Source of the DNA: a virus | Lineage: Duplodnaviria > Heunggongvirae > Uroviricota > Caudoviricetes | DNA: 20,988 nt | IMG/VR virus record: IMGVR_UViG_2778261588_000006 | Span: 1 to 20,988 of that record | Reading direction: 5' to 3' (one strand) | Shown here: piece by piece, positions 2,560 through 18,532 of the stretch | Position numbering within the stretch: the stretch's first letter is position 1 | Layout of the letters: the number at the start of each line of letters is the position of its first letter | Translations under genes and position numbers: made by a program | Notes under the pieces: generated by a model | What the model saw: the letters and a program-made list of their open reading frames with translations, nothing else | Told to the model about the DNA's origin: nothing | Database searches by the model: none

Positions 2560-2839
2560 GACCTTCCTCCTTTGGCTTGTGAATTTGTATCGTCATGCCG
2601 CTTTGAGTGGTGACTACAATGACAGAACCAGGCTGAAGGCTGTTAAGATTGAATGCTTCGTAAAACGAATCCAAGGCCAGCGCTTTTTTATTCTTTCGGT
2701 TCCACCAACGCCATCCCTTGCTACAGGCTACACTGACAATCCACTGTCCACTCCTGTAAGCCATATAAAACCAGATGAGCAAAACCTGAAGGAAGGCTAT
2801 CCAGTCAATAATCGTATATTTCGCGAAGGAGTCCATCAC
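2552..2839 (-). CDS. Hypothetical protein with N-terminal transmembrane helix (95 aa)
   Basis: ATG with AGGAGGTGA SD; hydrophobic segment IIDWIAFLQVLLIWFYMAY; 4-nt overlap with upstream gene. Confidence 0.5.
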   Translation of the reverse strand: MMDSFAKYTIIDWIAFLQVLLIWFYMAYRSGQWIVSVACSKGWRWWNRKNKKALALDSFYEAFNLNSLQPGSVIVVTTQSGMTIQIHKPKEEGRG

Positions 2840-3747
2840 TTCACCTCCTGCGGCGGTTCTGGTAGCGGCATCCAGTGTGTGACATTGCTAATCAGACCAT
2901 ATTCATTAGTTTGAGGATGGTTGCCGTTATCGTCTCCGTATTTAAGACTCTCCATAAAGCCATAATGCCTATCACCATTAACGCTCACAAAGCCGTAATA
3001 AGCAGGTATAACGCCGATCTCACACGTAACCAGTAAAGGAAAACTAGTTCTCCAATTTAGCTCGCCGATTACAGGCATTCGCTCACTACAGCTTATCCAG
3101 CCATCCGGAGTTACCGGATAGTTGCCCGATAGCGCATTACGCAATCGCTCCAGCTTCACGTATTCCTGAACCCTGTTTCCGTCGCATGCCTGAAGCCATT
3201 GCGCAGCCTTTTGCGCATCAGTGTGAAAGGCACAAGTGCGACCGTCATCAAATTGCATTTCGTAGAGGTCAGCAACTTGTTCAAACTGCGTATGTTGTGA
3301 CTTGTAAGTTTGGCTTACAGGTTCGGCACCATGAAGCATGGCGTCGCTCCGCTCTATGCCATCCAGCGCGATTCGCAGTGCCTGAATTGTGGTAGAGCTA
3401 TCGTTTGGGGCTATTCCATATCTCTCGAATACAGCTAAATGGTTGCGCATAATCTCAGGCGTAAGCTCTTTGTAAGCATAAGCAAGAGGCTCTGATGCAT
3501 TATCCGGCACAACCGACGCAGGCGCGGCAGCATAAACAGGAATAACGTCCGCTTGCTCTTTATTGCTTTCATCCGTTAAAGCCCAGAATAATTTCCCGGC
3601 CGGATGTTTGAAAATATAAGCAACTGGATCTGCTTCCAGCGATGCCAGCGCAATTCGTGCCAGTTCCATTTGTTCGCCACGGGTAAGCCCGTTTTCAAGC
3701 GTGGATTTAATGAACAATTCGATACGTTCTTTAGTGATAGCGCTCAT
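2836..3747 (-). CDS. DUF551-domain phage protein
   Basis: C-terminal WISCSERMP...THWMPLPEPP block typical of DUF551; start placed at MSAITK (3747) with AGGAG SD rather than the upstream in-frame ATG at 3789. Confidence 0.6.
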   Translation of the reverse strand: MSAITKERIELFIKSTLENGLTRGEQMELARIALASLEADPVAYIFKHPAGKLFWALTDESNKEQADVIPVYAAAPASVVPDNASEPLAYAYKELTPEIMRNHLAVFERYGIAPNDSSTTIQALRIALDGIERSDAMLHGAEPVSQTYKSQHTQFEQVADLYEMQFDDGRTCAFHTDAQKAAQWLQACDGNRVQEYVKLERLRNALSGNYPVTPDGWISCSERMPVIGELNWRTSFPLLVTCEIGVIPAYYGFVSVNGDRHYGFMESLKYGDDNGNHPQTNEYGLISNVTHWMPLPEPPQEVK

Positions 3748-7994: not shown

Positions 7995-8089
7995 AAAGAA
8001 GATTTCCAATAATCAGAACAAGTCGGCTCCTGTTTAGTTACGAGCGACATTGCTCCGTGTATTCACTCGTTGGAATGAATACACAGTGC

Positions 8090-9025: not shown

Positions 9026-9331
9026 TCAATCGTAATAAGCTGGAATTGATTTTCCGCGTTGCTTCTGGCGGCCTGAGCAAGTCACACCCATTTCACTGCG
9101 TGGCTTGCGGTAGTAAATACGATTCTGTTTACTCTCGACTTCTTCTGCCTTCTTGCAGCGAAGGCTTCCGAGTGATGCTGCTTTATCTGCTCTGACGCAA
9201 CCAGAGAGCTTTAGCGCAATTTTTCGCGCCAGTCGCTGCTCTTGCATTGCCTGTTCACGTTGAGCCTGTCTGCGTGCTCTGCGGCGATTTCTGGCGTTAT
9301 CGTCAGCCAGATATGTAATGACTACTGTCAT
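9026..9331 (-). CDS. N: N-like transcription antiterminator with arginine-rich motif
   Basis: 101-aa basic protein with N-terminal ARM (NARNRRRARRQAQREQ) like lambda/P22 N; GGAGGT SD; located ~315 nt downstream of a boxA-boxB nutL. Confidence 0.6.
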   Translation of the reverse strand: MTVVITYLADDNARNRRRARRQAQREQAMQEQRLARKIALKLSGCVRADKAASLGSLRCKKAEEVESKQNRIYYRKPRSEMGVTCSGRQKQRGKSIPAYYD

Positions 9332-9645
9332 GTTGACCTCCGATGAAACAACTTTGGAATTTTTTTTATTACAAAGTGGTTTCCTTCCCCGCCAATTAGA
9401 CGGGGATGGAAGAGCATTTATGAGCCTTTATGGACTCTGCTCGATCAGTTCTATTTAATTAATCTCTCAATTGAATGTAAGTATTCACATAAATCCTCCT
9501 ACCTCTTGTGCAGCTTTCTTGAATATGGTGGCGGCTGCATAACGCCTATGGAATTGACTTTGGCGGTGACGCGCCGGGTGCTTATCTTCCGGTTGCCGTC
9601 GTGCAGCTGCACTTCACGTCACCCCAAAGCCAACTACTCTTTGGT

Positions 9646-9688
9646 TCCCGCATTTCGGCGGGACAATCCCATCAATGTTAAAGAGCCT
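9646..9688 (-). promoter_or_regulatory. nutL: boxA (GGCTCTTTAACA) + 12-nt spacer + boxB hairpin (TCCCGC-CGAAAT-GCGGGA)
   Basis: Minus-strand boxA matches the CGCTCTTTAACA consensus; boxB stem and loop are identical to the nutR copy at 11341-11362. Confidence 0.6.
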
Positions 9689-9734
9689 GCCAATCTGTTC
9701 CGTTTGGCTTCCAGCGTCCTGCTGATGGCTAAAG

Positions 9735-9772
9735 AATACTGTAGGTATTTTATTGTGTAAATACCCAAGGTA
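9735..9772. promoter_or_regulatory. OL operator region: two dyads ATACTGTAGGTAT (9735-9747) and ATACCCAAGGTAT (9760-9772)
   Basis: Same ATAC-N5-GTAT dyad as at OR, centres 25 bp apart, upstream of nutL and N (PL region). Confidence 0.5.
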
Positions 9773-9905
9773 TTTATTTTTGGTGAAATAATGATAAGCA
9801 AATGAATACAAAGGATATTTATTTTTTCGGTGTCTGCTTGTTCAGTGCTTTTTATGCGGGATATGTGAAGTGGATCCCGATAGCTATTGCTGCCGGGATT
9901 ATAGG

Positions 9906-10292: not shown

Positions 10293-11009
10293 TCAAACCA
10301 GTCTGAGTTTTGTCTCAATTGCAACGCCTATAATCTTGCAGTTTCCATTGATTGGCACGAGAGGCCATGCAGGATTAAGTCCCTTGAGGTATTTATTTCC
10401 GCCGTCGATTATCAGCTTCTTGAATGTTGCTTCGTTAGAGTCAGAAAGTTTTGCTATGACCAAGCTGCCGTTGATCGCCTCCCTTCCGGTATCGAAAAGA
10501 ACGAATGTTCCCTCTGGAATGCTTAACCCAACCGGTGCCGTCATTGAATCACCTTCCACTTTAAGCCAGAACGCATTACCTTGAATATGCGCGTCAGACT
10601 CAAGCCAAACATCTATGTCTTTAATGGTGTATGGTTCGCATGCTTCACACCACGAGCCAGCCTGGATACTGCTTAACACCGGATACCTCTTTCCTGCTCT
10701 GTATTCCCCTGCATACCTTACGTTGGCATCGCTCTTAAGGCTTTCTGCCTGTTCTGCAACCTTGGCAGCAATTGACTGGCTAAAATCAGCAATTGAGACT
10801 TGCAACAATCGTGCAAAACCAGATGCAACCTCAACGTTTAGCGCGTTTCTGCCATTAAGATAATGCCCTACCGCTCCTTGGGTGATACCCAGTTCATCAG
10901 CGATTGAGTATTGGGTTATTCCCAATTCTTTCTTTTTTGACTCATACAAAGCCTTAAGCCGCTTAGCGTCTTCGAGCTGTTCTGTCGTCAGTGATTTTTT
11001 ATTTTCCAT
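10293..11009 (-). CDS. cI: CI-type prophage repressor (HTH + S24 LexA-like peptidase domain)
   Basis: N-terminal HTH (LGITQYSIADELGITQGAVGHYLNG), EGDSM serine motif and downstream Lys; divergent from cro across operator dyads; no SD, consistent with leaderless PRM-type mRNA. Confidence 0.9.
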   Translation of the reverse strand: MENKKSLTTEQLEDAKRLKALYESKKKELGITQYSIADELGITQGAVGHYLNGRNALNVEVASGFARLLQVSIADFSQSIAAKVAEQAESLKSDANVRYAGEYRAGKRYPVLSSIQAGSWCEACEPYTIKDIDVWLESDAHIQGNAFWLKVEGDSMTAPVGLSIPEGTFVLFDTGREAINGSLVIAKLSDSNEATFKKLIIDGGNKYLKGLNPAWPLVPINGNCKIIGVAIETKLRLV

Positions 11010-11083: not shown

Positions 11084-11115
11084 TCTTTGTTCATGGTTAA
11101 TAACGGAGAGTGCAT

Positions 11116-11310
11116 ATGATTCGAATGACACTTGCCGATTACGCCAAAATCCATGGACAGGCTAAAGCAGCCAGTGACTTTGGTGTAATCCAGTGCGCTA
11201 TCAGCAAGGCCATTCTGGCAGGCCGTAACATCATGGTTACGGTAAAGCCTGATGGCAGTGTGATTGGAGAGGAAGTTCGTCCTTTCCCAAGCAACAAGAA
11301 AAACAAATAG
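11116..11310 (+). CDS. cro: Cro repressor
   Basis: [15 protein letters not shown]...[24 protein letters not shown]...RPFPSNKK closely parallels lambda Cro; GGAGAG SD. Confidence 0.9.
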
Positions 11311-11316
11311 TAACAC

Positions 11317-11362
11317 CGCTCTTTAACAGTCATGGTCCTCATTCCCGCCGAAATGCGGGAAT
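11317..11362 (+). promoter_or_regulatory. nutR: boxA (CGCTCTTTAACA) + 12-nt spacer + boxB hairpin (ATTCCCGC-CGAAAT-GCGGGAAT)
   Basis: Consensus boxA 6 nt after the cro stop; 8-bp stem with GAAA-type loop. Confidence 0.65.
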
Positions 11363-11418: not shown

Positions 11419-11697
11419 ATGGAACTTACAAGTACTCGCAAGAAAGCGAATGCAATTACAAGCAACATCCTGAATCGAATTGCTGTACGTGGTCAGCGAA
11501 AGGTTGCCGACGCGTTAGGGATTAATGAATCGCAAATTTCGCGATGGAAAGACAGCTTCATCCCAAAAATGGGAATGCTTCTGGCTGTTCTTGAATGGGG
11601 TGTTGAAGACGAGGAGTTGGCGGAACTGGCTAAGAAAGTAGCCAGAATGCTGACAAAAGAAAAAGCCCCGAAGAACGGCGAATTCTTCGAGGCCTGA
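11419..11697 (+). CDS. cII: CII transcriptional activator
   Basis: ESQISRWK...MLLAVLEWGV matches lambda CII core; lambda-like leader TAAGGAAATACTTACAT-ATG; the longer track ORF from 11332 would overlap nutR. Confidence 0.85.
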   Translation: MELTSTRKKANAITSNILNRIAVRGQRKVADALGINESQISRWKDSFIPKMGMLLAVLEWGVEDEELAELAKKVARMLTKEKAPKNGEFFEA

Positions 11698-11731
11698 TGT
11701 AGAAAGACTGGATCAATCCACAGGAGTAATT

Positions 11732-18090: not shown

Positions 18091-18532
18091 TATCCCCAGC
18101 CGGGGAATAACTGGATACCAGGGGAGACAACCCTAAGCGCATTTACGAGTGTGTTTAGGGCGTGGGTCGGCAATGACTCCCTGTGCAGCCGACATCTGGC
18201 CCGGCAACATACAGTGCTCTTTCCGTTGTGCTGAATTAAGCGAATACCGGAAGCAGAACCGGATCACCAAATGCGTACAGGCGTCATCGCCGCCCAGCAA
18301 CAGCACAACCCAAACTGAGCCGTAGCCACTGGCTATCCTGAATTCATCAGTGATAGTTATGCTGCGGCCTTCTACACATGACCTTCGTGAAAGCGGGTGG
18401 CAAGAAGTTGCGCTAACAACCTCCTGCCGTTTTGCCCGTGCATATCGGTCACGAACAAATCTGATTACTAAACACAGTAGCCTGGATTTGTTCTATCAGT
18501 AATCGACCTTATTCCTAATTAAATAGAGCAAA

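Follow-up and report, generated by a model that had tools for sequence, protein, structure and literature searches.

The hairpin H4, encoded on the minus strand upstream of the antiterminator gene N, belongs to the leader RNA of that gene and is conserved. It is the middle one of three adjacent hairpins (H3, H4 and H5); together they make up the 3' half of a cassette of 207 nt, which the pL transcript carries downstream of its long leader stem and upstream of the N ribosome-binding site. The cassette, of modest interest as a new structured variation on the lambdoid N leader, is described by no annotation, Rfam family or publication that our searches found. Tentatively, we regard H4 as part of a domain that acts in cis, a reading that is weighed below against several alternatives.

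Phage context and feature map

The window (the whole 20,988-nt stretch analysed here) represents the early region of a phage or prophage that is lambdoid and similar to CUS-3 and HK620; its principal features are collected in Table 1. N is the master early regulator of lambdoid phages. The N-region DNA of the window is 98.9% identical to that of CUS-3, and N is annotated in HK620, CUS-3 and HK140; the protein itself scores only 16.9 bits against the Pfam N_peptide model, below the gathering threshold of 27.9, and its identification is therefore based on synteny together with these annotated near-identical homologues. The C-terminal two-thirds of the protein resemble phage 21 N, and the arginine-rich N-terminus is different. 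The leader from pL to N is ~400 nt long. A promoter and terminator scan found pL only, leaving the cassette without an internal promoter or terminator. The true nutL and nutR of the window have a perfect boxA (GCTCTTTAACA) and a common boxB, and the identical nutL sequence is annotated as such in HK620. Further along, at ~11657-11717 on the minus strand and antisense to the end of a cII-like gene, lies an OOP-RNA homologue (GAUUGAUCCAGUCUUUCUACAUCAGGCCUCGAAGAAUUCGCCGUUCUUCGGGGCUUUUUCUUUU), which in its 5' part agrees exactly with the published oop RNA of P22 and whose terminal hairpin is followed by a U tract.

Table 1. Positions of the leader elements and neighbouring genes, numbered from the first letter of the window
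Feature	Coordinates	Strand	Remarks
N antiterminator	9026-9331	-	101 aa; Shine-Dalgarno GGAGG at 9337-9341
H5	9345-9383	-	Long, imperfect: GAAAC-C-ACUUUG-U-AAU, A-rich loop, AUU-C-CAAAGU-U-GUUUC
Leader cassette	9346-9552	-	207 nt; limits set against HK620; holds H1, mini-ORF, UUAAUUAAAU, H3, H4 and H5
H4	9381-9411	-	Lower stem 9408-9411/9381-9384; upper stem 9399-9406/9386-9393; loop 9394-9398
boxA-like UGCUCUU	9410-9416	-	UGCUC is the 3' arm of H3; UU opens the H4 lower stem
H3	9412-9442	-	Outer GAGCA (9442-9438)/UGCUC (9416-9412); inner stem GAGUC/GGCUC
A/U-rich single-stranded UUAAUUAAAU	9453-9462	-	Invariant; between mini-ORF and H3
Mini-ORF region	9459-9500	-	Conserved strong Shine-Dalgarno AGGAGG 9495-9500, then AUG-UGA 9485-9490
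H1	9509-9539	-	UGCAGC/GCUGCA stem, variable C/A-rich loop
Long leader stem	9552-9635	-	21 bp, one bulge; homologue, by position and sequence, of the lambda GGCUUUGGGGUG.../...CACCACCAAAGC stem
True nutL	9646-9686	-	Perfect boxA GCUCUUUAACA 9676-9686; boxB UCCCGC-CGAAAU-GCGGGA 9646-9663
pL	-35 at 9761, -10 ending 9733	-	Promoter scan
cI	10293-11009	-	Peptidase_S24 and HTH domains
cro	11110-11310	+	Domain search
True nutR, after cro	11318-11360	+	boxA GCTCTTTAACA 11318-11328; boxB as in nutL, 11343-11360

Structure and stability of H4

A preliminary description of this DNA had reported a minus-strand stem of 8 bp (9399-9406/9386-9393, with one G-U pair and a UAAUU loop), and re-reading of the sequence confirmed it, together with the distance of 55 nt from the 3' end of the stem to the A of the N start codon (9331). 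The stem is preceded by TGCTCTTCC; the order along the minus strand is UGCUCUUCC (9416-9408), A, UCCCCGUC (9406-9399), UAAUU (9398-9394) and GGCGGGGA (9393-9386), and the single wobble of this upper stem is U9400.G9392. Four further pairs had been overlooked: beyond an A9407.A9385 mismatch, UUCC (9411-9408) pairs with GGAA (9384-9381). The complete H4 thus has 12 pairs in 31 nt and takes in the final two bases of TGCTCTT.

In a 51-nt context, H4 folds at -22.2 kcal/mol (z = -5.7), and none of 200 shuffles was as stable. With both strands scanned, no other 33-nt hairpin in the window reaches its -21.0; the best hairpins in five dinucleotide shuffles of the whole window reached -18.1 to -21.3, so stability alone is not decisive at that scale. 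The same scan returned further stable minus-strand hairpins at 18396-18428 and 8054-8086 (-20.5 and -18.8 kcal/mol, respectively). For the hexamer GCTCTT, 13.3 occurrences are expected in the window and 16 are found, which is no enrichment. With shuffled windows near -18 to -21 and no excess of the hexamer, the case for H4 rests on the comparative evidence, and it is conservation with compensatory change in the relatives that, on our alignment, sets H4 above chance.

The leader backbone and its lambda-like stem

Alignment of the window with lambda, phage 21, HK620 and the Cronobacter phage ENT47670 reveals a common leader backbone, which runs from the transcript start CAGCAGGACGC via boxA and boxB to GGCUUUGGGGUG..., and ends with ...CACC(A/G)CCAAAG directly 5' of the Shine-Dalgarno sequence. 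The long stem of this backbone folds at -41.3 kcal/mol (z = -3.3) in the window. Both the long N-leader stem of lambda and the hairpins of the cassette are stable helices between nutL and N, near the N ribosome site, and the preliminary description had likened H4 to the RNase III structure of lambda. The alignment does not support this likeness: the helix that corresponds to the lambda stem is, by position and sequence, the separate 21-bp one, whereas H4, with its 12 bp, lies in an insert that is absent from lambda, phage 21 and HK620. Shared with the lambda stem is the CCAAAG... sequence of its 3' base, a copy of which is built into H5.

A discrete 207-nt cassette

In HK620, ...GCCAAAGUCAAU is joined straight to CAUCGGAGGUCAACAUG, and the window has 207 extra bases at this point. 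A second pair differing by presence and absence is provided by the type C contigs and ENT47670, which is without the cassette; their flanks are 98.5% identical, and the type C cassette is flanked by a perfect 14-nt direct repeat, CAAAGCCATTTCAC. These comparisons define the cassette as a discrete insertion/deletion unit. It was found in 159 of 5426 complete E. coli genomes (2.9%), among them those with prophages of UTI89, 55989 and NRG 857C, and in 64 viral and 20 metagenome contigs (about 85); its allele groups are ~99%, 79% and 72% identical, the CUS-3 copy matching the window at 99.5% and that of HK140 at 72%. GTDB species-representative genomes gave only chance matches, in Firmicutes and other unrelated taxa, and the metagenome scan yielded no hairpin variants beyond those known. 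The pattern ATGCAGCCGCCA...GCTGCACA retrieved the same family along with unrelated coding matches; a looser one, TGCTCTT-N-AACCACTTTG, gave mostly chance matches in viral contigs and was dropped.

The cassette is always present in single copy, directly upstream of the first pL gene. A covariance model of its 3' domain hits each of 84 loci exactly once, and likewise the window, and has no match in HK620, phage 21, ENT47670, HK022 or the lambda leader. The cassette co-occurs with at least three nutL/N types: the HK620 type, a P22 type (boxB GCGCUGACAAAGCGC; N start MTVIQYGSS...) and a 933W/lambda-like type (boxB loop GAAAA; N start MTRRTAFTGSS...).

The 5' half is also conserved, and comprises the H1 stem, AGGAGGAUUUAUGUGAAU and UUAAUUAAAU. 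As the H1 stem is invariant, it gives no evidence of covariation. Across alleles that are otherwise 72-79% identical, an 18-nt block holding the Shine-Dalgarno sequence and AUG-UGA, and the 10-nt A/U block, do not vary. A GUG mini-ORF at 9459-9488 (VNTYIQLRD*) overlaps the AUG-UGA; it reads VNA* in types B and C, and the peptide is accordingly not conserved. Indeed, no ORF is conserved across the cassette alleles on either strand, and coding potential was rejected. This bears on the antisense 129-aa product WP_011478232.1 (PGAP, UTI89; 1020-1409 of locus L010), which is called across the N leader in UTI89-type prophages and is probably spurious: its frame is broken in the window by an A7/A8 difference, and the A tract concerned, in the H5 loop (9361-9368 in the window), has 7, 8 or 9 A. 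The 41-aa HK140_048 is not conserved either.

Inserts of this kind seem to accumulate in the N leader as at a hot spot, and the length of the leader ranges from ~150 to ~650 nt. In locus L041 (~3100-3340, minus strand), a 66-aa ORF (MSSRISNEQKDRLCRLL...) sits between cassette and N on the cassette-proximal ribosome site and looks like a moron within the N leader. In L061 (~2780-2830, minus strand), the cassette carries a remnant of an HK620-type N start (GGAGGTCAACATGACA), after which comes a 933W-like N served by a ribosome site of its own; the two are joined by recombination at the CCAAAG motif. An unrelated cassette of ~250 nt, with its own strong Shine-Dalgarno sequence and a 3-codon mini-ORF (ACAGGAGGTGCCGTAATGGTGCACTAA), directly follows the nutL boxB in E. 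coli DP051 (L009, ~1160-1410) and E. coli M9 (L006, ~1160-1410).

Over 18 nt, the 5' start of our cassette (CGAAATGCAGCCGCCAAA) matches the nutL boxB, in its 3' half and flank (CGAAATGCGGGAACCAAA), at 78% identity, a match seen between 743-760 and 856-873 of the HK140 locus L002 and placed at ~9524-9541 in the window. Together with the arrangement of a boxA-like motif and a hairpin, this match hints that the cassette may have originated by duplication and decay of the nutL-to-stem region.

Variation and covariation in H3, H4 and H5

All 29 distinct sequences of the 3' domain fold as adjacent H3, H4 and H5. H4 occurs in nine variants: in type A, represented by the window, it reads UUCC-A-UCCCCGUC / GGCGGGGA-A-GGAA, and in types B, C and D, UUCU-GCCCCUC / GAGGGGC-(C or U)-AGAA. 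The stem is kept throughout, and is maintained by compensatory changes, with seven different loops (UAAUU, AAUUC, AGUUC, AAGUC, AUGUC, UUAU and UAUAU). The earlier observation that the loop is unlike those of nut boxB elements stands; the cognate boxB loop, CGAAAU, is found elsewhere, at nutL and nutR.

Covariation was counted in a hand-made, N-padded structural alignment of 19 sequences, which was used because MAFFT misaligned the hairpin between alleles differing in stem length. Standard pairs occupy 88-89% of the alignment cells, compared with at most 49% when the partners are slid, in a data set that consists essentially of four alleles plus single-base variants and in a hand-fitted alignment that leans towards the structure. 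For H4, 97.4% of cells are paired, and two pairs change on both sides (U-A/C-G and G-C/U-A). In H3, the L061 lineage has A-U for G-C, its change of UGCUC to UGUUC being matched by that of GAGCA to GAACA. In H5, a C-G pair at the base becomes U-A in type C, and a C.U mismatch is replaced by A-U (in A and B backgrounds) or by G-C (in type C). The single-base polymorphisms mostly retain or gain pairs; for example, an A-to-U change closes the A.A mismatch, and a C-to-A change closes a mismatch in H5. The G-U pairs are compatible only with minus-strand, i.e. pL-sense, RNA. These patterns, drawn from few independent events and from an alignment fitted to the structure, indicate that the helices of H3, H4 and H5 are kept by selection on the pL-sense RNA.

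The domain ends close to the start of translation, with 3 nt between the end of H5 and the N Shine-Dalgarno sequence. The base of H5 overlaps the lower stem of H4 by 3 nt; the two conformers that share these three bases are predicted to lie 0.2-2.1 kcal/mol apart in the four alleles, and each of the alternative pairings has one compensatory change. H5 is built on a second copy of the CCAAAG... sequence that is normally found, as the 3' base of the long stem, beside the Shine-Dalgarno sequence, and its 5' arm complements this copy in a context-specific manner (GAAACCACUUUG in the window, GAGAUGACUCUG in type C). The predicted accessibility of the N Shine-Dalgarno sequence is 0.38 in the window versus 0.41 in HK620, and 0.26 in type C versus 0.24 in ENT47670. 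A closing helix sequestering the N Shine-Dalgarno sequence was predicted in types A, B and D; it is missing in type C and was not adopted.

Comparison with known RNA elements

The hairpin is followed by AACCACUUUGUAAUAAAAAAAA, with no U tract, and the scan finds no intrinsic terminator here on either strand. Rfam gave no match at gathering thresholds over the window and only chance-level hits within 9250-9850 (E above 2), and tRNA and tmRNA scans found none. The put RNAs of HK022, two adjacent stem-loops that act in cis on RNA polymerase, share with H3-H5 the character of nearly linker-free stem-loops in the leader of an early operon. However, a direct reading of the HK022 pL leader revealed no sequence resemblance, in line with the lack of a covariance-model match, and this identity was rejected; moreover, the cassette lies ~270-380 nt downstream of the pL start, has no pR copy, and is carried by phages with a full N/nut system. 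The possibility of an AgvB-like sponge of GcvB was likewise set aside, as AgvB maps downstream of pR', outside the N leader, and no CACAACA target motif is present. The Pas sRNA is not relevant.

Possible function of the domain

Based on the currently available comparisons, we tentatively favour the view that H4 is the central and most stable arm of a cis-acting H3-H4-H5 leader domain, which would keep the insert compact and rebuild a helix beside the N ribosome site. As a cis folding and stability module, the three hairpins would lock the inserted RNA into a compact local fold, sparing the upstream long stem and the N ribosome site from disturbance by the insert and leaving little unstructured RNA to Rho or RNase E. 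H5 would re-create, from the duplicated CCAAAG... copy, the helix that normally ends just 5' of the N Shine-Dalgarno sequence, and would therefore preserve or tune the control of N translation; the near-isoenergetic choice between the lower stem of H4 and the base of H5 may serve as a small switch beside the ribosome site. We prefer this reading because the Shine-Dalgarno accessibility is unchanged, because H5 is made from the duplicated copy and because the two conformers are nearly isoenergetic. A translational-control role for the hairpin, as the preliminary description had proposed, is plausible; the functions proposed here for the domain are all inferred. There are counterpoints: unchanged accessibility of the Shine-Dalgarno sequence would fit a harmless passenger of no use to N as well, and a purely structural role leaves the conserved 5' half, with its strong Shine-Dalgarno sequence and AUG-UGA, unexplained.

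For its part, the 5' half suggests ribosome loading on the start-stop mini-ORF, which would perhaps protect the long leader from Rho or RNase E. In this respect the cassette can be compared with REP-type hairpins and STAB-SD, which are mRNA-stabilizing elements: it has a G+C-rich hairpin with a loop free in sequence, and a strong Shine-Dalgarno sequence, without a meaningful protein, in a long untranslated leader. There is no sequence relationship with these elements, however, and a stabilizing effect would be attributed to the cassette only by analogy.

A bolder interpretation, which we put forward as a possibility but consider unlikely, would make the entire cassette a horizontally moving, self-contained riboregulatory module of lambdoid phages that is plugged in downstream of the long leader stem, ahead of the ribosome site of the first pL gene, whatever the N specificity, and that either toggles N translation or is released as a small RNA. 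Its parts would be the strong Shine-Dalgarno sequence with the start-stop mini-ORF, the A/U-rich linker and the three-hairpin domain with its two-state junction, and its release as a stable phage small RNA would proceed through the duplicated end-forming motif.

Alternative explanations

The release of an RNA can also be considered on its own: the cassette, or part of it, would be cut from the pL leader to act in trans, with H4 as its nuclease-resistant core or 3' end. Some support comes from P22B, a stable RNA of 96 nt from the leader of P22 N (gene 24), which ends in ...CCAAAGCCAUUUCA, 16 nt before gene 24 (PMC13397905). The motif that contains this 3' end, CAAAGCCAUUUCA, also flanks the type C cassette; since the same 14-nt motif is present at both ends of that cassette, the same end-forming event could release a unit of ~205 nt. 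The movement of the cassette as a self-contained unit between phages of different N types, its conserved single-stranded stretches (UUAAUUAAAU and the AGGAGG region) and its C/A-rich loops would also suit a small RNA. On the other hand, P22B equates to the 3' half of the long leader stem rather than to H3-H5, P22 is without the cassette, and the P22B ends derive from one small-RNA sequencing study. Furthermore, the cassette has no internal promoter, U-tailed terminator or Rfam match, its C/A-rich loop varies between alleles and is without the GcvB target CACAACA, and its restriction to the site directly upstream of the first pL gene suggests a role in cis. We judge a processed small RNA to be an unlikely explanation.

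It seems rather less likely still that the cassette has no present function and was inserted as a selfish element or hitch-hiker, perhaps a duplicate of the nutL-to-stem region that has since decayed, in which hairpins are kept only because misfolding would harm N expression. Such a passenger would account for the presence/absence polymorphism among otherwise near-identical phages, for the flanking direct repeats, for the resemblance of the 5' end to boxB (78% over 18 nt, to its 3' half and flank), for the likeness of the boxA-like motif and hairpin to a degenerate nut site, and for a Shine-Dalgarno accessibility that is predicted to be the same with and without the cassette. It fits poorly with the compensatory and pair-creating changes in three helices, with the persistence of invariant 18-nt and 10-nt blocks across alleles of 72-79% identity, and with the fact that 2.9% of the complete E. 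coli genomes, and phages of three N lineages, have retained the cassette.

Cleavage of H4 by RNase III, either alone or coaxially stacked on H3, would part the upstream leader from the N ribosome site. RNase III modulates the expression of lambda N, whose leader, with its RNase III-sensitive long stem, is a classic example of control exerted jointly through transcription, translation and RNase III. Typical substrates of the enzyme have two helical turns, a 34-nt hairpin being the minimal one, and stacked short helices can also serve. No base separates H3 from H4 in type A, and stacking of H4 on the outer helix of H3 would give ~18 pairs; by itself, H4 offers 12 bp and one mismatch in 31 nt, compared with the two turns of a typical substrate. 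In types B, C and D, moreover, an extra base or bulge interrupts the H3/H4 junction, and the upstream leader already presents the 21-bp lambda-homologous helix, which is the better candidate for RNase III. We rate the likelihood that H4 is a processing site as low, although stacking on H3 could lengthen the helix.

The preliminary description had read TGCTCTT as a boxA-like element, which raises the question of a second nut-like site, where the motif would recruit NusB/NusE and the hairpin would serve as a boxB for N or a Nun-like arginine-rich protein. As in lambdoid nut sites, a motif with GCUCUU precedes a G+C-rich hairpin of the pL leader; UGCUCUU(U) fits the first 6-7 bases of boxA. Compared with the gamma-proteobacterial consensus GYTCTTTAANA, GCTCTTCCATC of the window and G(C/T)TCTTTCTGC of types B to D agree at only those first 6-7 positions, and the AANA half is missing. 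In the predicted fold none of the 9 bases of the stretch is single-stranded, UGCUC being bound to GAGCA upstream and UUCC to GGAA, and in the one lineage with UGUUC the partner has changed too; there is no spacer between motif and hairpin. The loop is not specific to N, since AAUUC and AGUUC occur in phages with the identical N protein WP_000219337.1, three N types carry the cassette, and the cognate boxB is present at both nutL and nutR. Finally, unlike nut sites, the hairpin domain has one copy per phage, with no second copy in the pR operon (covariance model; window and 84 loci). The TGCTCTT is best described, from its pairing and covariation, as the H3/H4 helix junction and not a boxA; a nut-site identity is excluded as far as sequence goes, and a nut-like function is very improbable.

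We give the least credence of all, and next to none, to an element of the DNA itself, a palindrome bound by a protein or used in recombination: types B, C and D do have a stem whose arms are perfect inverted repeats, and the nearby TTAATTAA is palindromic, but the T.G pair of type A is an A.C mismatch on the opposite strand, the sequence of the arms changes while pairing persists, and H3 and H5 are RNA-like as well, G-U pairs included.

Implications for lambdoid phages

For annotation, the cassette is a caution that a boxA-like hexamer beside a hairpin need not be a nut site, and the protein-coding genes now called across this leader are probably spurious. If the cassette were indeed a riboregulatory module, it would represent a previously undescribed class of leader RNA element. 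Overall, the conservation of the cassette between the leader stem and the N ribosome site suggests an unrecognized control of N expression or a phage-derived RNA product.
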